Source: Patescibacteria group bacterium (GTDB taxonomy: Bacteria; Patescibacteriota; Minisyncoccia; Phycocordibacterales; UBA9973). Taken from it: a stretch of 64,000 bases of DNA. The stretch is from the NCBI GenBank assembly GCA_040384805.1, contig JAZKIP010000001.1, positions 51,981 to 115,980 on the forward strand, given 5' to 3'. Both the position numbers and the translations under genes were made by a program. The notes under the pieces were generated by a model. It was not told where the DNA came from and did not search any database. It was given only the letters and a program-made list of their open reading frames with translations. How positions within the stretch are numbered: the first letter of the stretch is position 1; each line of letters begins with the position of its first letter. This document shows, piece after piece, positions 883-57,302 of the stretch.

Positions 883-2262
<1,380 letters not shown>

Positions 2263-2270
2263 CTAATAAT

Positions 2271-3227
2271 TTAACTGACGCTTGCCATGCCGGCACTTAT
2301 TTCGGATATTTCCTGGGTGATACCTGCTTGACGGGCTTTATTGAACTGCAATGTGAGATCTCCGATCATTTCTCCTGCGGCATCGCTTGCATTCTTCATG
2401 GCAAGCATCCGGGCTGACTGCTCTGATGCCCCCGATTCAAGGAGCATCTGGTAGATCTGCATGCGCACTAATTTCTCTGCAAGAGACTCAATGAGGGTAT
2501 TCATATCTCCATCGAAGGTATAAGATACATCTTCTCCGACCTTTGTCGGAGTCCCGACGTCGGTCGGGACTTTCTGTTCTCCGATACTCTCGATCACTTC
2601 TTTGAGTTCCTGCTTGGAAATCGGCAGAAGTTGTCGAATGTTCGGTTTCTGAGAAAGAGCTGAAATGAAATCAGTATATGCCACATGGACTTCAGCATAC
2701 GTTCCCTTCTTGAATTCTTCGATGATGAGGCGCGATAAGGGAGCGACATCCTGCAAACCAAGAATAGCTGGAAGCTCGGTAAAAGTGGCGATGATATTTT
2801 GTCCAATCCCTGAACCATCCGGTCGGGCAAGTCTTCGCATAGCTGCATCCCCTTTCTTACCGACAGCGACGATGTCGATGGCTTCCGGGGCATTCTTGAG
2901 CATCCCGATCGCTTTCTTGATGATCTGGGAATTATATCCGCCGCAGAGGCTCCCGTTTGATGTGACAAGGACAAGAAGGCTTCGCCCTGCTATAGGAGAT
3001 GTCGCTTGAGCTGTCTTTTTTTCGAAAAAAGGATGAGTGGTTTCTTCGAGCTTGTCTGAAAGCGATGTAAGAAGATCCCATGAATAGCCGGCATACAAGC
3101 GCGACGCAAGAGCCTGGGCGACCGCCCGGCGCATCTTCGAAGCCGCCACGAGTTCCATCGCCTTGGTGATCTTCTTGGTATTTTTTACCGATTTTATTCT
3201 TCGTTTTATTTCTTTAGTTCCTGCCAT
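2271..3227 (-). CDS. atpG: F1 ATP synthase gamma subunit
   Basis: 318 aa; N-terminal MAGTKEIKRRIKSVKNTKKITKAMELVAASKMRRA and C-terminal ...QAGITQEISEI hallmark of gamma. Confidence 0.9.
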   Translation of the reverse strand: MAGTKEIKRRIKSVKNTKKITKAMELVAASKMRRAVAQALASRLYAGYSWDLLTSLSDKLEETTHPFFEKKTAQATSPIAGRSLLVLVTSNGSLCGGYNSQIIKKAIGMLKNAPEAIDIVAVGKKGDAAMRRLARPDGSGIGQNIIATFTELPAILGLQDVAPLSRLIIEEFKKGTYAEVHVAYTDFISALSQKPNIRQLLPISKQELKEVIESIGEQKVPTDVGTPTKVGEDVSYTFDGDMNTLIESLAEKLVRMQIYQMLLESGASEQSARMLAMKNASDAAGEMIGDLTLQFNKARQAGITQEISEISAGMASVS

Positions 3228-3232
3228 AAAAT

Positions 3233-3592
3233 TTAATAAGCGAGAAAAGTAAGGAAACCGATTATTATAAGTGTAAGCATTGCACGTATTACAAGTATTA
3301 ACAATATTATGGAAAGTATCAATAGGATGATATTTTTTGCGCTATTCTTATTTTTTGATTTCTTGTATATGGTAATGCCTTTACTGCAAATCATTGTGAT
3401 CCATATTGATACAATAACGCCTAAGAATATCAATATGATAAATCCGAGTTTGCCCGTAAGTATATATTTTCTTAGAAGGAAATATATATAACCATATCCG
3501 TGCAATACAAAAAATACAAAAAATATTTCTATCGCTATCAGCTGGTTTTGTTTCTTTTCAATTAAATTATCTCTACTAATGCTTTCTTCCAT
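3233..3592 (-). CDS. small polytopic membrane protein of unknown function inserted between atpA and atpG
   Basis: 119 aa with 3-4 predicted TM helices. ATG sits 3 nt after the atpA stop and the ORF ends 5 nt before the atpG start, which suggests translational coupling. Very AT-rich codon usage compared with its neighbours. Confidence 0.5.
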   Translation of the reverse strand: MEESISRDNLIEKKQNQLIAIEIFFVFFVLHGYGYIYFLLRKYILTGKLGFIILIFLGVIVSIWITMICSKGITIYKKSKNKNSAKNIILLILSIILLILVIRAMLTLIIIGFLTFLAY

Positions 3593-6371: not shown

Positions 6372-7298
6372 TTAATGTGCTTCCGCCACGCGATGACTTT
6401 CCTTCGGATGCTCGTCGTGCTTCTCGTCATGGTCCTGGCTTGCCATCGTATAATAGACAAGGGTCAGAATAGCGAAGATGAATGCCTGGATCACACCGAC
6501 AAAGACTTCCAGAAGCAAAAATGGCGTCGGTACAAGATATGCCATGATTGCCGCCATTGCCGCTAAAAGCACTTCGCCGGCGAACACATTTCCGAAAAGA
6601 CGGAATGAAAGCGATGCGATCTTGGCCATTTCTCCAATAAGCTCCAGAAATCCGACAGCGAACATGATCGGAGCCGTTAAAAGGATTGTCGGATCTTTTC
6701 GGACTTTCGTGAAAATGCCTCCGAGCGCCTTTAGATTAACATATTTATTGATGGTTTTCCAGAGACCGATCGTGAATATTCCAAAGAGATTCGCTCCGAG
6801 AACGGACAGGACCGCAAGAGGCAATGTTCCGTTGATGTCGGCCGTTCCGCTTCGAATAAGGGGTATAAACGCTTTGCCATGTTCGGTTGTCTCAATAAAG
6901 CCGAATCCTCCGATTGGCAATATTCCCATCCAGTTATTAAGAAGCACGAAAAGAAAAACAGAGAACACGACTGGAAACGCCTTGTTGGTGATCCTGCGGT
7001 CGCCTGTGACTTGATCAGCGAGCGATTCCGCTCCTTCGATCACGAATTCGAAGAAATTCTGAATCCCCTTCGGTATTTGCTTGAGCTTGAAGCGCATGAT
7101 AACGGCAAAAATGACGAGAATTGCCACGACGATCCAACTTGTAAAAAGCGCATTAGTAACCGTAAAAGATCCGATATGTCCAATCGGTTCGGCATATAAT
7201 GTCGCTTCATGATGCGCTTCTTCGCTTTCGACATGGGTCGCCTCTGGTGCGCCGGTATCCATTATTTCATTTTCTACATGTTCTTGAACTTCTGCCAT
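6372..7298 (-). CDS. atpB: Fo ATP synthase subunit a with N- and C-terminal extensions
   Basis: 308 aa; polytopic; conserved Arg-containing helix (LSFRLFGNVFAGEVLL). Acidic/His-rich N-terminus (~40 aa) and His-rich C-terminal tail (DHDEKHDEHPKESH). Confidence 0.85.
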   Translation of the reverse strand: MAEVQEHVENEIMDTGAPEATHVESEEAHHEATLYAEPIGHIGSFTVTNALFTSWIVVAILVIFAVIMRFKLKQIPKGIQNFFEFVIEGAESLADQVTGDRRITNKAFPVVFSVFLFVLLNNWMGILPIGGFGFIETTEHGKAFIPLIRSGTADINGTLPLAVLSVLGANLFGIFTIGLWKTINKYVNLKALGGIFTKVRKDPTILLTAPIMFAVGFLELIGEMAKIASLSFRLFGNVFAGEVLLAAMAAIMAYLVPTPFLLLEVFVGVIQAFIFAILTLVYYTMASQDHDEKHDEHPKESHRVAEAH

Positions 7299-11700: not shown

Positions 11701-13092
11701 TTAGTTTTGCAACGGATCAATCATGGTGGTTTGAATGTTGGTCGCTTTCTTCATAACGCTGTCCCCATAGGAGGCGGTTGTTGTTGTGCACTTGGTTCCC
11801 CCTCCGTAATAACGGCATGCGGCAGTACGCTCAGACGTGATACTTCCGTTCTTTGCCCCAAGATCGGTCAGAAACAGGGCTGACGCGATAAAGGCGTCCT
11901 TCGGATTCCATGGATCGGGCGTTACGACGCCAAGAGTCTTCGCGATGCGTGATTTAAGCCCGGTCCACGTCGACGGTATGAACTGCGACGGTCCCATCGC
12001 TCCTCCGTATCCGAGTCCCCCGATCGGGCATGAGACAAGAGTTTTGTATGGATCACGTCCAAGCGATGCCGTGATATCCTGGAATGGTTTCGTATCTCGA
12101 GTCGGCTTCATGACATTTGCTAATACCTTGCCGCTCTTGCTGCTTACTCCCACTCCGGTATCCATATTTGTCACATAGCATGAGCCTTGATTGGTTCCGA
12201 GATTGCTTTCTTGGGTCAATATGGCAAGAAGAAATGCCGGCCGGATGCCCGTTATCTCTTCTGCAAGATTCGCGTATTCAAGCGCTCTTCCAAAAGGAAT
12301 TGCCGAGACATCGCGGAGATTGAAAAGCATCGAAAGGATTTCGGCCCGGCGCTTCGCCTTGTCGTCGAGAACTTTTTGGTATTCTTTTTCTTTGTTCTTG
12401 CTAATCGACAGTAGCTGCTGTTTCTGTGCTTCGCTCGTTTCAACTTCGCGTTGAGCGCTTTCGAGCTGGGCTTTGACATCGATTTCTTGATTCTTTTTTT
12501 CCTCAAGGTTTTTCTTTTCCGATTCGGTCTGAGTCTTCACGCCACGGATTTCATCGACTGAGGATTTGATCCCCTTTTTGATCGACGCGAAAGCGTCGAC
12601 ATCGCCCAAGCTTTCGGAAATTTTCTCCTGGGATAAGATCATAGCAACGAGCGACCGTTCATCGATCTCGCGTTCTTTGCGCATAAGCTGGGCAAGAGAC
12701 TCTTTTTCGTTTTCGATTTTCTCCGTTAAGGTTTCGATCGTCTTGTTCTTTTCCGTAATCTCTCCGCCGAGCTTCTTGATGACAAGATTTTTTGATTGGA
12801 TATCGAGCTTTGCTTTTTTAATCTGGGTCGTCAGTATCGCGATATCGCGCGACAAAGACACAGACTGGCCTTTCTGCGTGCTTAATTCTTTCTGTTTCTG
12901 CGCTATTTCTTGTTCAAGGGCGGAAAGTTCCTGTTGGAGGCGTGCTCGGTCCGCTTGAGCATTTTGGAGAGCCTGATCGGCAGCGCTGGCAGACGGTATT
13001 TTATAGCTAAACCCGCCGAGAACCATTGAAAATATAATGAGAAATGAAAAAATGTATCGTATAATGCGATGCATATAGAACAAGTATATCAT
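11701..13092 (-). CDS. secreted coiled-coil protein with C-terminal lysozyme-like / lytic-transglycosylase-like domain (putative cell-wall hydrolase)
   Basis: 463 aa; N-terminal signal/TM, ~250 aa coiled coil (EnvC-like), C-terminal region with ...LAILTQESNLG... (E-S motif reminiscent of family-1 lytic transglycosylases). Domain call is tentative. Confidence 0.5.
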   Translation of the reverse strand: MIYLFYMHRIIRYIFSFLIIFSMVLGGFSYKIPSASAADQALQNAQADRARLQQELSALEQEIAQKQKELSTQKGQSVSLSRDIAILTTQIKKAKLDIQSKNLVIKKLGGEITEKNKTIETLTEKIENEKESLAQLMRKEREIDERSLVAMILSQEKISESLGDVDAFASIKKGIKSSVDEIRGVKTQTESEKKNLEEKKNQEIDVKAQLESAQREVETSEAQKQQLLSISKNKEKEYQKVLDDKAKRRAEILSMLFNLRDVSAIPFGRALEYANLAEEITGIRPAFLLAILTQESNLGTNQGSCYVTNMDTGVGVSSKSGKVLANVMKPTRDTKPFQDITASLGRDPYKTLVSCPIGGLGYGGAMGPSQFIPSTWTGLKSRIAKTLGVVTPDPWNPKDAFIASALFLTDLGAKNGSITSERTAACRYYGGGTKCTTTTASYGDSVMKKATNIQTTMIDPLQN

Positions 13093-51862: not shown

Positions 51863-52405
51863 ATGAAGAAAAAACCCTCAATTCAAAAGGCAATTCTTAA
51901 AATTTTGGCCAATAAAAAAGCTATTTCCCTCGATACAATAAAAGACGCTGCAGAGAGCTCTCTTATGCCTGAAATTAAGAGTACTAAGGCAGAGTATGCA
52001 CTGACCCGTTCGATGAAGAACCTCGTTTCTGACGGCCTTGTAGAGGCTTTCAGTTCAGAGCACAAACAATACTTCCGCCTGACCCCCGAAGGCAAGCATA
52101 AGCTCAATAGTCTCACGCTCGATACGGATTCTAGCTTGGTTTCCACGCAATGGGACGGATATTGGCGTATCGTACTTCTTGATCTTCCTGAGAACCGCAA
52201 GAGCGAGCGCGAAGCCTTGCGCTACCTTCTGAAGAAAGCGGGATTCATCTGCGTGAAAAATTCAGTCTGGATATCCATGCACCCGTTCGAACATCTCTTT
52301 ACGAACATAAAGAAGGATCTAGGATTAACAACCGAACTTATCATTTTGGTTACCGACAAGCTTGACGATACAACCGAAGAATCATTTCTGGATTTGATGA
52401 AATAG
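51863..52405 (+). CDS. PaaX-like winged-helix transcriptional regulator
   Basis: 180 aa; N-terminal wHTH; central WDGYWRIVLLDLPENRKSEREALRYLLKKAGFICVKNSVWIS block resembling the PaaX middle domain. Divergent from dnaK, between grpE and dnaK. Confidence 0.45.
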   Translation: MKKKPSIQKAILKILANKKAISLDTIKDAAESSLMPEIKSTKAEYALTRSMKNLVSDGLVEAFSSEHKQYFRLTPEGKHKLNSLTLDTDSSLVSTQWDGYWRIVLLDLPENRKSEREALRYLLKKAGFICVKNSVWISMHPFEHLFTNIKKDLGLTTELIILVTDKLDDTTEESFLDLMK

Positions 52406-52445: not shown

Positions 52446-53027
52446 TTATTTTTTGTATTCGTATATGTTTACCCGTGCCGGCCGTACGATTCTTTCCCCT
52501 ATTTTATATCCTGCTTGGAGAACCCTCTCAACTGTATGATCTTTTGATTGATCATCTGTCGGGACCGTGTCGATCGATTGATGCAGATTCGGGTCAAAGG
52601 GCGCATGAGCCTGATCGATCTTCTCTATACCGGATTCAGTGAGAGCCGTTACGAACTGTTGGAATATATATTCGATGCCTGTTCGCCAATTCTGATCGAC
52701 TTTCTCCCATGCATCCTTGTTTGCGAATGCCATATCAAAACTGTCGAGCACCGGAAGAAAATTTTTGGCCATCTTTTCTTTTGCTATAAGTGAGCTATTG
52801 GCGCGGAGCTCCGTCATTTCCTTTTGAAGATTCACATAATCAGCTTTGGCTCTTTGCCATCCTGTTAAGTATTCTTCCTTTTCCTTGCGGACTGTCTTGA
52901 GGTCTTCCCTGAGTTTTTTCGTCATATCCTTGCCGGATAATTCTTCTCCATCCTCGGTGCTTTCGACAAAAGTCACGTCGTCAAAGGATTCATCGTTATT
53001 CTTATTATCTTTTTCTGTATCTTCCAT
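52446..53027 (-). CDS. grpE: nucleotide exchange factor GrpE
   Basis: 193 aa; acidic N-terminus, long helix, C-terminal beta domain ...PFDPNLHQ... typical of GrpE. Confidence 0.85.
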   Translation of the reverse strand: MEDTEKDNKNNDESFDDVTFVESTEDGEELSGKDMTKKLREDLKTVRKEKEEYLTGWQRAKADYVNLQKEMTELRANSSLIAKEKMAKNFLPVLDSFDMAFANKDAWEKVDQNWRTGIEYIFQQFVTALTESGIEKIDQAHAPFDPNLHQSIDTVPTDDQSKDHTVERVLQAGYKIGERIVRPARVNIYEYKK

Positions 53028-53071
53028 GAGAAATAGTATACCGAAAAAGAATCTTTTTGCAAAACAGCCGA

Positions 53072-54277
53072 TTACTTATCGAGAGATAGGCGGTAAATAA
53101 CTCCCTGTTCATCATCTGAAATATATGCAATTTCGTCATCAGTGAATTTTATATCAACAGGCCTTCCGTATTTCTTTCCGTCCTTCCCAAGCCACCCGGT
53201 GATGAAATCTTCGGTATCGACATATCGTCCTTGATCATCGAATTTTACTCTGACAATCTTATATCCTGTCGGAACTGACCTATTCCAAGATCCGTGATAT
53301 GCAACGAGAAGATCATTCGCATATTCCTTACCCCAGCTCTCTGGAATAAACGTAAGCCCAAGAGGCGCTGAATGCGCCTGAAGATCAACATATGATTCCT
53401 TTTCCAAGGGTTCCATGCAGGGATTTCTTATATAGGTATTTTTATCGAAATCAGTGTCATGAATATTCTTTCCGTAGCAGATAGGCCAGCCGTAGCTGCC
53501 TCCTTTTTCGATGATGTTTATCTCATCAGGCGGGATATTGTCTCCCAGACCGTCACGACCCATTTCGGTGGCATACACTTTATCGTTATGGAGCGTCATG
53601 AAAACAGCATTGCGAAGGCCTTTTACATAGGGATCTGTTTTTCCTGTTTTCGTATCGTATTGAATGATCGATCCATGACTGTCATCCTCATGGCAGACAT
53701 TACAGGATGATCCGATGGATATAAGAAGAATATTCTCATTCGGAGAAGGAAGGAATAATAGATCGCGGGTAAAGTGTCGATCTGTTGATCCGGATGGCAG
53801 ATCCAGGAGTTTTTTGTAGCTTGAAACAGTACCTTTCTCCTGATCGTAATCATAGCGAACAAGCGCATTAGAGAGAGCCACATATAAATAGCATGTTTCT
53901 CGGCAATCAAATGCCATCCCATGCGGCTTGTTGATCTTATCAACAAGCGTAGTATGATTATCCGCGCTACCGTTCTTGTCAGAATCTGCGAGAACCGATA
54001 TTTTCCCTTCCCCGGGCTGGCTGACAAGCATTCTACCTTTGGGATCAAATTGAATAACTCGGGCGTCAGGAAGATTCTCGGCATAGATATTCATAACAAG
54101 GCCTGTCGGAAGAGATAGGTATGCTATTGATCGATTATCGCCATTGCTGCCTTCTTTTTTTACTGTATCCGGAATAGTGATTGTTCCGACTTCTTTTTTA
54201 AAAAGGTAAAATCCGAATAGAGTTATAGCTACAATGATAATCACGACAATAATCCATTTTTTAGAAATAGCAGTCAT
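53072..54277 (-). CDS. membrane-anchored soluble-glucose/sorbosone dehydrogenase-family beta-propeller protein (PQQ-dependent sugar dehydrogenase-like)
   Basis: 401 aa; N-terminal TM; ...KPHGMAF... and ...GGSYGWP... motifs characteristic of the GSDH family. Confidence 0.6.
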   Translation of the reverse strand: MTAISKKWIIVVIIIVAITLFGFYLFKKEVGTITIPDTVKKEGSNGDNRSIAYLSLPTGLVMNIYAENLPDARVIQFDPKGRMLVSQPGEGKISVLADSDKNGSADNHTTLVDKINKPHGMAFDCRETCYLYVALSNALVRYDYDQEKGTVSSYKKLLDLPSGSTDRHFTRDLLFLPSPNENILLISIGSSCNVCHEDDSHGSIIQYDTKTGKTDPYVKGLRNAVFMTLHNDKVYATEMGRDGLGDNIPPDEINIIEKGGSYGWPICYGKNIHDTDFDKNTYIRNPCMEPLEKESYVDLQAHSAPLGLTFIPESWGKEYANDLLVAYHGSWNRSVPTGYKIVRVKFDDQGRYVDTEDFITGWLGKDGKKYGRPVDIKFTDDEIAYISDDEQGVIYRLSLDK

Positions 54278-54278
54278 A

Positions 54279-54473
54279 TTATTTTTTGGATTTCTTAGTT
54301 TTGCGCGCAGGAACTTTCCCTCCGGTTTTCCGGGCTTCGGAAAGCCCTATGGCGATAGCCTGCGTGCGGCTTTTGACTTTCTTGCCGCTTTTACCGGATT
54401 TTAATTTCCCTTCTTTATATTCGTGCATGACTTTGTGAACTTTCCTTTGAGTTTTTGTTTCTTTTTTAGGCAT
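54279..54473 (-). CDS. small lysine-rich basic protein (hypothetical)
   Basis: 64 aa, about 40% K/R; 2 nt downstream of the GSDH-like gene. Confidence 0.4.
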   Translation of the reverse strand: MPKKETKTQRKVHKVMHEYKEGKLKSGKSGKKVKSRTQAIAIGLSEARKTGGKVPARKTKKSKK

Positions 54474-54580
54474 ATTATAAAATTGATTATTTTTTATAAA
54501 ACGACTCCTTTTAAATTATGAACTTTCCAGAAAATATATGCAATATACTTATCCACCAAAAGTAATGACCACGCCTGTTC

Positions 54581-55045
54581 TTAAAACAAGCATGGTCGTT
54601 GATAATAGCCTTTCATCGCTTCCTGTGGCACGGTGCGCGTATGCATAGTTAATGCAACGCAGGAATAGCAAAATTTGATATCTTTTGCCGGTTCAGTTCT
54701 GTATAACTCGTATCTCTCCTGTTCTCCACAGCATCCTTTTGTTTGGCATTTGTATTTTACCAATGGAAGCGGCTTGCGAACTTCTTTTTCATCAAGGGAC
54801 TTATGTTTTATTTCCGGCTGCGGAATATATTTTAAGTCCGTGAAATGGGCTGGACGTTGATAATTTTTTACATTATCATCATCTGGCAAAATACGGTTAT
54901 GCAGAGTGATTTTCCTGCACGAAGAACAATTTTTTATATCTTCGACCCATGGAGCATACAACTCATATAGTTTATGGTTGCAGGAACCGCAGGTTTTGCA
55001 TGTATATAGAACAAGCGCGAGCGGCTGTTTGGTAGGTTCTATGTC
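54581..55045 (-). CDS. tandem zinc-ribbon protein (two C-x2-C...YELY...C-x2-C...H modules), unknown function
   Basis: Internal duplication: LVLYTCKTCGSCNHKLYELY...CSSCRKITLHNRILP...YQRP and LVKYKCQTKGCCGEQERYELY...CYSCVALTMHTRTVP...YQRP. Alternative start at 55066. Confidence 0.5.
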   Translation of the reverse strand, partial: DIEPTKQPLALVLYTCKTCGSCNHKLYELYAPWVEDIKNCSSCRKITLHNRILPDDDNVKNYQRPAHFTDLKYIPQPEIKHKSLDEKEVRKPLPLVKYKCQTKGCCGEQERYELYRTEPAKDIKFCYSCVALTMHTRTVPQEAMKGYYQRPCLF

Positions 55046-55115
55046 CATTTGAGAAAATTTTTTCAATCATATCATATATATTATATGTCTGCTTTTACGT
55101 TTTCCACAGGTACTA

Positions 55116-55142
55116 AAAAAGACCCGGGCACAGGGTCTTTTT
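55116..55142. terminator. bidirectional rho-independent terminator after rpsI
   Basis: aaaaagaccc-gggcaca-gggtcttttt. Confidence 0.7.
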
Positions 55143-55154
55143 ATGTAGAAATCA

Positions 55155-55565
55155 TTATCGCTTGCTCCACTGTGGGGCTTTGCGGGCTTTCTTGAGTCCG
55201 AACTTCTTTCGTTCTTTTTGACGAGGATCGCGCTTAAGCATTTTCGCCTTCTTAAGAGGTGATCGTAATTCTATATCAAATGAAACAAGAGCGCGGGAAA
55301 TGCCGTGACGGACAGCTTCAGCCTGAGAGTGTATGCCTCCGCCCTTGGCTGTGGCGACAACTTCGAATTTCTCGCTTGGATTTGACTCTTCGAATGCACC
55401 GGTAACTATTTTCTTAAGGTCAGCAGTCGGGAAATAAACAGTAAAATCTTTTCCGTTTATGGAATACGATGTTTTGGCTGCTTTAGTAAGGCGCACGACA
55501 GCTGTCGCGGTCTTGCGTCGTCCGATAGCGCGTATATATTCTTTTGTAGATGCTTTCTTTTCCAT
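55155..55565 (-). CDS. rpsI: 30S ribosomal protein S9
   Basis: 136 aa; C-terminal ...KKARKAPQWSKR. Confidence 0.9.
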   Translation of the reverse strand: MEKKASTKEYIRAIGRRKTATAVVRLTKAAKTSYSINGKDFTVYFPTADLKKIVTGAFEESNPSEKFEVVATAKGGGIHSQAEAVRHGISRALVSFDIELRSPLKKAKMLKRDPRQKERKKFGLKKARKAPQWSKR

Positions 55566-55568
55566 ATA

Positions 55569-55919
55569 TTATTCGGTGATTGTTAAGTGTTTCATCATAA
55601 GAGGTCGAAGTTTATTCGAAGGAAGCATGCCATACACCCCAAGCTCATAAAGAGCTTTCCATCCCTTCTTAGCGATTATTTCTGCATTCGTAGCTGTCTT
55701 GAATCCTCCGGGAAATCCTGAGTAATTTTCATGGATCGTAGTATTCAATCGCGCTTCAGACATGCGGGTCTTCGAAGCGTTAACGATATTTACCTTTACG
55801 TCAGCAACGGTATTAGCCGTGTAATCCGCTGATGTCTTGCCCATCAAAGCTTTAGCAGCAGCCGATGCTACGCGACCGAACGTTTTTCCTTCTGCGTCGA
55901 TTGTGTGTGTTGTTGTCAT
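55569..55919 (-). CDS. rplM: 50S ribosomal protein L13
   Basis: 116 aa; operon position upstream of rpsI; L13 core. Confidence 0.85.
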   Translation of the reverse strand: MTTTHTIDAEGKTFGRVASAAAKALMGKTSADYTANTVADVKVNIVNASKTRMSEARLNTTIHENYSGFPGGFKTATNAEIIAKKGWKALYELGVYGMLPSNKLRPLMMKHLTITE

Positions 55920-56288: not shown

Positions 56289-57302
56289 TTATTTAAGGGT
56301 AATGCCATATCCGCCAAGGACTTTCTTTATCTCTTGGATCCCCTTATCTCCAATGCCTTCGATTTCCAAAAGATCTTCCTTTTTCTTGCGGGCAATGCCT
56401 CCGATGGTCCGGATATTTGCTCCCGTTAAGGCATTTAAGGTGCGGGTCGAAAGATCAAGAGTATCAATGCGGGTTTTAAGAATGTCTGTAAATTCATTTG
56501 GAGCGGCTACGTCTTTTGAATCACCCTTGCTATCTTCTTCGTTTTCATGGGAAGATTCTTGAAATGACCGCCCGGATAATATTGTAAAGCCGACAATAGC
56601 CTGTAGCTGTTCTACCATAAGAGTGATGGACTTTTCAAGGGCTTCCCGAGGTGTAAGAGTTCCGTCAGTTTCAATCGTCATTCTGAGGCGGTTATGGTTA
56701 GTTTTATCTCCTACGCGCATGTTCTCGACTTCATAGGAGACGCGGCGGATAGGAGTAAATATTGCATCTAAGGCGATTGTACCGACTTCCATCTTCGCTT
56801 TCTGGTGAACATCTTTTGAGACAAAGCCAAGACCTTTTTCAACAGTCATTTCAATAGAAAGAGTATTTTTCCCCGTTACTTCGGCGATATGAAGGTCCTT
56901 ATTGAGAATTTCTACTTGTCCTGAAACTTCGATGTCCGATGCGGTGACTTCCTTCGGTCCCTTAACGACGAGTTTTACTGTCTGGGGCTCATCGGTCAAA
57001 AGGCGGAAACGAACCTGCTTAAGATTAAGTAAGATTGTGATAACGTCTTCCTTGACGCCGTCGAGAACTGAGAACTCATGCGACGCTCCGTCGATCTTCA
57101 AGGATGTGATCGCCGCGCCTGTCAGAGATGAAAGAATGATGCGGCGGAGCGAATTACCCAAGGTATGTCCGTATCCCGGGTACAATCCGTCGATTTCATA
57201 GACACCCTTGGTGCCTGCTTCTGAAACGATGGATAATTTCGATGGTAACATTATATTTAAATCAGACATATGATATTGATATGCGCGAGAGTAGTCTCGC
57301 AA
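56289..57302 (-). CDS. rpoA: DNA-directed RNA polymerase alpha subunit
   Basis: 337 aa; NTD dimerisation and CTD (…LDLSTRTLNAL…IRTIG…) motifs. Confidence 0.9.
   Translation of the reverse strand: MRDYSRAYQYHMSDLNIMLPSKLSIVSEAGTKGVYEIDGLYPGYGHTLGNSLRRIILSSLTGAAITSLKIDGASHEFSVLDGVKEDVITILLNLKQVRFRLLTDEPQTVKLVVKGPKEVTASDIEVSGQVEILNKDLHIAEVTGKNTLSIEMTVEKGLGFVSKDVHQKAKMEVGTIALDAIFTPIRRVSYEVENMRVGDKTNHNRLRMTIETDGTLTPREALEKSITLMVEQLQAIVGFTILSGRSFQESSHENEEDSKGDSKDVAAPNEFTDILKTRIDTLDLSTRTLNALTGANIRTIGGIARKKKEDLLEIEGIGDKGIQEIKKVLGGYGITLK

Follow-up and report, generated by a model that had tools for sequence, protein, structure and literature searches.

A fused pair of putative L33-like zinc ribbons encoded between rpsI and grpE in a Patescibacteria genome

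A 64,000-nucleotide (nt) stretch of contig JAZKIP010000001.1 from a Patescibacteria group bacterium, in the following called the window, carries between rpsI and grpE an open reading frame (ORF) for a tandem zinc-ribbon protein, ORF-A. Judged from its sequence, ORF-A appears to be unique in joining two copies of a small zinc-ribbon protein head to tail; this protein is most like the ribosomal protein L33. What appears to be new here is a narrowly distributed zinc-ribbon family that is predicted to fold like L33, ends in a distinctive tail and has a conserved regulatory block; the lysine-rich protein encoded by the neighbouring ORF-B belongs to a family that is already known. Loci and proteins of relatives are designated L001-L038 and P0007, P0008 and P0011, respectively.

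The tandem protein and its single-module family

When the halves of ORF-A were compared with each other by BLASTP, they aligned at 41% identity over 71 amino acids (aa; E 6e-16). The internal duplication is therefore real, as was proposed in a first-pass annotation of this DNA that described two homologous modules, and the YELY, CxxC, H and YQRP motifs named there were found in both of them. The C-x2-C-x2-C motif assigned to each module is present in module 1 and absent from module 2, which has C-x4-C-C; the third cysteine is not conserved in the family. A length of 154-161 aa had been given, and 155 aa counted from the ATG at 55048 is correct. The longer form would begin at a TTG (55066) that lies within the conserved -10 promoter block described below, and the ATG is therefore taken as the true start.

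Module 1 ends with ..YQRPAHF at the point where the single-module relatives end with ..RPxLF and a stop codon, and these relatives begin a few residues before PLA. The tail of module 2 has diverged (TVPQEAMKGYYQRPCLF) and has lost the acidic LPDDD. The linker between the modules is probably the former intergenic and 5' sequence of a second gene copy, and it looks as if ORF-A arose when the gene was duplicated in tandem and the stop codon of the first copy was then lost. Part of the linker DNA (54770-54795, minus strand; CTTGATGAAAAAGAAGTTCGCAAG) loosely resembles the promoter block TATGATTGAAAAAATTTGCCA, a likeness without statistical support; it may be a relic of the promoter of the second copy. 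Among the matches from 1.84 billion representative proteins, the two-module architecture was seen in ORF-A only.

A full HMMER scan of these proteins returned 11 true relatives, all of them single-module proteins of 66-85 aa, and a profile search added one further single-module homologue. Six further zinc-ribbon loci were recovered by an exact 20-mer scan of metagenomes with the upstream DNA block, and a profile search of genome contigs with a narrowed alignment yielded one Saccharibacteria genome. A peptide-pattern scan of metagenomes found no family members. In an alignment of 18 sequences, C17, C20, C41, C44, H50, P55 and Y63 were invariant, and the family consensus reads PLAxVxYxCxxCG..(Y/F)ELY..KxCSxCxxITxHxRILPxDDxxKHYx(R/K)PxLF. 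The only cysteines and histidines that are invariant family-wide are four cysteines, in two CxxC-type knuckles, and one histidine. The C-terminal tail, LPxDD..Y(K/R)(K/R)PxLF, is conserved over about 20 residues and nearly invariant; a search of the PDB with the tail peptide found nothing. The very C-terminus is invariant as ..(Q/K/R)(R/K)P(S/T)LF (54584-54601 in the window, for example), which we take to resemble the beta-clamp-binding pentapeptide QL(S/D)LF of bacteria.

The ratio of nonsynonymous to synonymous substitution rates (dN/dS) ranged from 0.02 to 0.24 among five close family genes, indicating a translated gene under purifying selection. ORF-A and its modules matched no family in Pfam, NCBIfam, PHROGs or PADLOC (best hit DUF7044, E 0.03-0.25), so that the earlier description of ORF-A as unrecognisable holds for these model collections. 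A phmmer search of the PDB with ORF-A gave nothing useful, and a word-indexed protein search returned ORF-A itself only. The family, rare and lacking a Pfam or NCBIfam model, appears to be previously undescribed, and it appears to represent an accessory gene that evolves fast but under selection in a Saccharibacteria-like lineage of Patescibacteria and is carried by few bacteria only. A phage origin was considered and rejected, as neither relatives nor the promoter block were found in viral contigs.

For structure prediction, an AlphaFold2 model was built with the family alignment; MAFFT had placed all homologues on module 1 of ORF-A. The model is a four-stranded ribbon (strands 11-17, 24-29, 36-41 and 46-53) in which each knuckle lies at the tip of a beta-hairpin. 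The predicted local distance difference test score (pLDDT) was 81-92 in the core, and confidence was low for the conserved tail. Four cysteines invariant in 18 sequences, together with predicted strands that flank both knuckles, place the family in the C4 zinc-ribbon fold class. The suggestion that ORF-A is a twofold zinc ribbon is borne out by these data, zinc binding being predicted.

The closest structural and profile relative of each module appears to be bL33. The top four Foldseek matches of the model came from entries for bacterial 70S ribosomes and were chains 48-49 residues long; their E-values were not significant, and the chains, unnamed in the output, are presumably L33. Further support is provided by profile comparisons. 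The best PDB match of the family profile was L33 (hmmsearch, E 0.0022), with an alignment over CxxCG ... KfCxxCxKxTLHxx. Alignment of the family with an L33 profile by hhalign gave probabilities of 82-91% (E 1e-5 to 1e-6); the L33 profile was written by hand and was confirmed as L33 against PDB L33 chains (hmmsearch E 1e-31). Six other zinc-binding families served as controls and remained at or below 25%: rubredoxin reached 23-25%, Zim17 12-15%, the Ruc N-terminus 2-5%, and L36, L31 and L32 less than 2%. A relationship to L36, for which hmmsearch gave E 0.009, was rejected on the basis of this hhalign value. An alignment of the repeats with a well-characterised domain, named in the first-pass annotation as evidence that would speak against its reading, was thus found in part, namely a weak but specific alignment to the ribosomal zinc ribbon bL33. 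The module is probably derived from L33, as an L33-like ribbon and not an L33.

Promoter block, stop-codon terminator and the rpsI-grpE slot

The promoter-like TATAAT proposed for ORF-A right after the rpsI terminator is present (55078-55083). Conservation among the relatives falls on the neighbouring extended -10 box, TGATATGAT, which forms part of the promoter and leader block (Table 1). A block TG[GAC]TAT[GC]ATTGAAAAAATTTGCCA is common to 11 loci (the window and 10 others), with a single copy in each; in the 10 others, 3-5 nt separate it from the start codon, and the sequences further upstream are unrelated among the 11 loci. No copy of it was found in front of grpE, dnaK or the PaaX-like gene. 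The leader has a length of about 12-15 nt and lacks a Shine-Dalgarno sequence. In some loci the block is in frame with the gene, in others it is out of frame, and in two it is without ATG; its conservation therefore acts at the DNA or RNA level. For P0007, P0011 (L009 834-1079) and the loci of the L021 type, gene callers took an ATG within the -10 block as the start, which creates a spurious 'MIEKIC..' N-terminus. The name 'Elf1' given to P0011 by the Joint Genome Institute (JGI) looks like an annotation artefact.

At the other end of the gene, a hairpin over the stop codon was found in all 12 family loci examined. In this hairpin, the 5' arm comes from the last codons and the 3' arm lies just downstream, before a T-rich tract; the arm sequences differ between loci. 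With extended -10 block, short leader, 66-85 codons and a terminator over the stop codon, the zinc-ribbon gene appears to be a self-contained cassette. Hairpins equivalent to the rpsI terminator of the window follow rpsI in L001, L004, L006, L009, L010, L012, L021 and L023. Since the cassette and grpE have their own expression signals, the adjacency to rpsI and grpE reflects synteny and not co-transcription.

In every locus with enough flanking sequence, the zinc-ribbon gene lies between rpsI and grpE. It is the only gene between them in L001, L004, L009 and L023, and also, within the reach of their contigs, in L006 and L010/L011. In L012, from a genome labelled 'uncultured Candidatus Saccharibacteria', an ORF of 188 aa separates it from rpsI, and in L033 and L029 the intervening sequence ends with an ORF of 195 aa directly before the zinc-ribbon gene. 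The order in L005 is rpsI, RmrA-like M78 peptidase, DUF4411, GSDH, zinc ribbon, grpE. L038 has no zinc ribbon, and there rpsI is followed by a 91-aa membrane ORF, a DUF6496 gene and grpE. RpsI was 54-87% identical to that of the window, and the zinc-ribbon protein only 35-58%; in near relatives this compares with 77-87% for RpsI and RplM. The slot position is thus old and the zinc-ribbon protein fast-evolving.

The gap between rpsI and grpE appears to be a variable slot, with ORF-B and the GSDH-like gene of the window as unrelated occupants. Directly after rpsI, L005 carries at 1820-3474 an M78 peptidase matching PADLOC RmrA (E 3e-25) and a DUF4411 protein, and this inserted defence- or toxin-antitoxin-like module marks the slot as an insertion hotspot. 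A GSDH homologue is also found in the L005 slot (L005 3707-4939), on the other side of the zinc-ribbon gene than in the window. A conserved non-coding stretch of about 430 nt after rpsI was observed in L033 (1602-2037, corresponding to 11882-12317 of the record; zinc-ribbon gene on the plus strand) and in L021 (188-740), with no Rfam match. In L004, the zinc-ribbon gene and grpE are 430 nt apart, and this non-coding gap contains 25 nt (6462-6486) that match positions 187-211 of bacterial 23S rRNA (Rfam LSU, E 0.039). Rfam searches of the window, of L001, L004, L012, L023 and L033, and of the gaps in L033 and L004 returned only tRNAs and this 23S-like fragment.

Table 1. Features of the zinc-ribbon locus in the window (positions are those of the window)
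Feature	Position	Strand	Remarks
rpoA	56289-57302	-	Three genes upstream of ORF-A
rplM	55569-55919	-	Upstream of rpsI
rpsI	55155-55565	-	Directly upstream of ORF-A
Intrinsic terminator of the rplM-rpsI operon	55116-55142	-	GC stem, then U6; -14.3 kcal/mol, z -4.0 (RNA fold)
Promoter and leader block of ORF-A	55051-55074	-	TGATATGATTGAAAAAATTTTCTC; extended -10 box (TGnTATGAT) and start of short 5' leader; ATG 2 nt later
ORF-A	54581-55048	-	155-aa tandem zinc-ribbon protein, NCBI hypothetical protein V4665_00645; NCBI gene call agrees; longest ORF 54581-55066
Module 1 (P9-F69)	54842-55024	-	Zinc ligands C17, C20, C41, C44; H50; tail ILPDDDNVKNYQRPAHF
Linker (T70-K92)	54773-54841	-	23 residues; joins module 1 to the PLP..Y start of module 2
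Module 2 (P93-F155)	54584-54772	-	Ligands C101, C106 (Cx4C knuckle, as in P0008), C127, C130; H136
Hairpin spanning the ORF-A stop codon, then T-rich tract	54567-54597	-	Terminator of the gene itself; -21 kcal/mol, z -6.5
Promoter-like site upstream of ORF-B	54486-54515	-	TTTAAA, 17-18 nt, AATAAT; consensus match only
ORF-B	54279-54473	-	64-aa DUF6496 protein; independent neighbour, outside the zinc-ribbon cassette
GSDH/PQQ-type beta-propeller gene	53072-54277	-	401 aa, N-terminal membrane helix; Pfam GSDH 2.9e-13
grpE promoter	53035-53062	-	-35 TTGCAA, -10 TATACT, 7 nt to ATG; marks the downstream end of the slot
grpE	52446-53027	-	Downstream of the GSDH-like gene
PaaX_M-type regulator	51863-52405	+	Winged helix-turn-helix (wHTH) and PaaX_M, Cas2-like; between grpE and dnaK

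The lysine-rich neighbour and the flanking genes

ORF-B contains 19 lysines and 4 arginines, and the measured share of 36% (isoelectric point (pI) 10.9) agrees with its earlier description as a Lys/Arg-rich protein of 64 aa. The accompanying statement, made by eye, that it resembles no recognisable family did not hold. ORF-B matched Pfam DUF6496 (PF20106) with 72.6 bits at a cut-off of 24 (residues 8-58, profile positions 6-58 of 58), and NCBI names it DUF6496 domain-containing. More than 5,300 homologous clusters belong to DUF6496, many of them 64-86% identical to ORF-B. The family alignment is very conserved, and ORF-B keeps all invariant residues, including QAIAIGLSEAR. It is an ordinary member with no notable difference from DUF6496, a family without known function; no mention of DUF6496 was found in the literature searched, and a helix-loop-helix model of the family had no specific fold relative. 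The sequence GTCGTTTTATAAAAAATAATC around the promoter-like site upstream of ORF-B is common to the orthologous DUF6496 gene in L038. As only 1 nt separates the stop codon of ORF-B from the beginning of the GSDH-like gene, these two genes are probably co-transcribed.

ORF-A and ORF-B had been proposed as a novel pair of nucleic-acid-binding proteins. The two genes are adjacent and on the same strand in the window, and both proteins are small and basic. However, a DUF6496 gene was found in none of the 17 other zinc-ribbon loci, the closest DUF6496 locus (L038, 86% identical) has no zinc-ribbon gene, and other DUF6496 genes, widespread as they are, occur in unrelated genomic contexts. In the window itself, the two genes are kept apart by the terminator hairpin and by a distinct promoter-like site. 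The missing co-occurrence and the unrelated contexts indicate that ORF-A and ORF-B are not a pair, and a joint function is scarcely credible.

In the window rpoA, rplQ, rplM, rpsI, ORF-A, ORF-B, the GSDH-like gene and grpE follow each other in this order on the minus strand. The uL13 encoded by rplM is short (116 aa), a feature reported for bacteria of the candidate phyla radiation (CPR). The genes rpmJ (L36; 58809-58916) and rpmE (L31; 11464-11673), both on the minus strand, are canonical with their Cys motifs present, and the genome therefore keeps ordinary zinc-binding ribosomal proteins.

The promoter of grpE is conserved as TTTTGCAAA..TTTTTGTATACT in L005, L009, L010, L023, L029, L033, L035 and L038. 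It is consensus-like (TTGCAA, 16-17 nt, (TG)TATACT) and lies only 7-10 nt from the ATG across loci; the grpE transcript would be nearly leaderless. As in the window, a PaaX_M regulator always lies on the opposite strand between grpE and dnaK in L004, L006, L009, L012 (two copies), L029, L033, L035 and L038, and no hrcA was seen. It is a candidate heat-shock regulator of the lineage. Beyond it lie dnaK and then dnaJ, which were assigned by ORF size and synteny with L004.

Possible functions and comparison with known systems

The reading that we rank first, with a probability of roughly 0.4, is that the family protein is an L33-derived accessory protein associated with RNA or the ribosome, possibly autoregulating via the conserved block. 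It would descend from a zinc-binding L33 paralogue, having kept the ribbon and the K-x-C-x-x-C-x-K/x-x-T-x-H-x-R face, lost the basic KNKRN loop of L33 and gained a docking tail. Zinc would hold the ribbon together as a scaffold, with part of the second-knuckle face of L33 retained. The tail, LPxDD..Y(K/R)(K/R)PxLF, is predicted to be unstructured and would be a docking peptide that binds a partner, and the unusually conserved promoter/leader block may serve autoregulation. The fused ORF-A would be bivalent, with the acidic LPDDD part of the tail kept by module 1 only. Bacteria are known to retain extra L33 paralogues (PMC5007448, PMC5912738); RpmGA, RpmGB and RpmGC of B. subtilis and the mycobacterial alternative L33 are examples.

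Several observations weigh against this reading. The zinc-ribbon gene is absent from the slot of L038, whose RpsI is 85% identical to that of the window; the gene is thus accessory and cannot encode a core ribosomal component. No match to Pfam Ribosomal_L33 (PF00471) above threshold was found, neither for ORF-A nor for its two modules, and one of 14 members reached E 0.0054. Between the two knuckles, where L33 has its most conserved basic loop, KNKRN, the family has (Y/F)ELY and a variable segment. The proteins are mildly basic (net charge +1 to +10, one member -1; pI 6.6-9.5) and contain an acidic DDD motif, compared with +8 to +9 over 50 aa in L33; such mild basicity, together with the acidic motif, is atypical of a protein embedded in rRNA. 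Finally, in slots split by insertions the gene stays by grpE (L005, L012, L029, L033) more often than by rpsI (window, L004).

This last point favours a partner of the DnaK system, acting with GrpE, DnaK and DnaJ either as a zinc/redox-switched holdase of the Ruc type or as an escort of the Hep1/Zim17 type; the conserved tail would dock on DnaK or GrpE. In nearly all loci, grpE is the gene directly after it. There is precedent in Ruc (Rv0991c), which combines a Cys4 zinc ribbon with a disordered C-terminal part and whose gene, in many phyla, has linkage to dnaK, dnaJ, grpE and hrcA (PMC7448276), and in Hep1/Zim17, a zinc-ribbon escort of mitochondrial Hsp70 (PMC4890766). We rank this explanation second and consider it unlikely, since hhalign gave 2-5% for the Ruc N-terminus and 12-15% for the Zim17 core against 82-91% for L33, and neither FmdB nor zf-DNL was matched among the Pfam families listed (25 of 42) for 14 members. 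Moreover, the tail is short and nearly invariant, unlike the long, variable and hydrophilic one of Ruc. The gene has its own promoter and terminator, the grpE promoter is separate, and the block is not repeated at grpE or dnaK; in the window, two genes lie between ORF-A and grpE. A lineage-specific role, in which the single-module protein would serve Saccharibacteria translation or proteostasis as an L33-derived subunit or regulator, for example as a stress-specific protein that fills or competes for the L33 site or as a coupler of ribosomes and the DnaK system, self-controlled via the 24-nt block and present in the window as a unique bivalent fusion, is speculative and quite unlikely.

The unusually conserved 24-nt promoter/leader block, specific to the zinc-ribbon gene, could also point to a transcription factor or an RNA-polymerase-binding zinc ribbon of the RbpA/Elf1 type that possibly represses its own promoter. 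The position of rpoA three genes upstream and the JGI label 'Elf1' on one member are in line with such a function. However, the gene call that bears this label (P0011) starts inside the promoter block, the Pfam families listed (25 of 42) for 14 members do not include Elf1, the similarity to RbpA is marginal, a helical sigma-interaction domain is missing, and the conserved block may be merely a strong promoter. Third in rank, this explanation is improbable. We regard it as very improbable that the gene is the organism's own bL33, a relocated and highly diverged rpmG in place of the canonical one. L33 is the best fold and profile match, the gene lies at the end of a ribosomal-protein operon, and no canonical rpmG was found in the 64-kb window or in L001-L012, DNA that does not include the rplK/rpmG-secE-nusG region. 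Against this, the slot of L038, which by RpsI is equally distant, lacks such a gene, the basic loop is lost and the proteins are weakly basic, and the sequence evolves far faster than RpsI and RplM (35-58% vs 77-87%). Loss of bL33 has been reported for Peregrinibacteria, Gracilibacteria and Absconditabacteria and not for Saccharibacteria, which instead lack bL32 and bL9 (PMC9297842).

If the proposed L33 ancestry is true, a ribosomal zinc-ribbon paralogue would have turned into an independent, self-regulated mini-gene in reduced Patescibacteria genomes, whose ribosomes are already known to be atypical in that Saccharibacteria lack bL9 and bL32 (PMC9297842). The list of uncharacterised small proteins also gains a family that has a clear cis-regulatory block and that has until now been annotated as 'hypothetical' or mislabelled Elf1. 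The practical value is modest, as the family is rare and accessory and the Lys-rich neighbour is already on record as a domain of unknown function (DUF).

Three known systems invite comparison. With Ruc, the redox-regulated chaperone Rv0991c of M. tuberculosis, the family shares a small Cys4 ribbon, an unstructured C-terminus and the grpE/dnaK/dnaJ neighbourhood. It differs in having no detectable sequence or profile similarity to Ruc, a nearly invariant tail of about 20 residues and a transcription unit separate from grpE. Hep1/Zim17/Tim15 (zf-DNL) proteins have in common with it the zinc ribbon, a conserved segment containing His and Asp after the second CxxC, and a link to Hsp70, which is functional in the known family and a matter of gene adjacency here. 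The DNL motif is absent from the new family, and the hhalign probability was low (12-15%); zf-DNL is a eukaryotic organellar family. The zinc-binding C+ form of bL33 (RpmG, PF00471) shares a four-stranded zinc ribbon of about 50 residues with two CxxC knuckles, and the signature K-x-C-x-x-C-x-K-x-T-x-H-x-(R/K) around the second knuckle. In contrast to bL33, the family proteins stay below the Pfam threshold, have YELY in place of KNKRN, carry an extra acidic and aromatic tail of about 20 residues and are only mildly basic. Their gene is not next to rpmB or secE-nusG; it is accessory and fast-evolving, and in the window it occurs in tandem-fused form.

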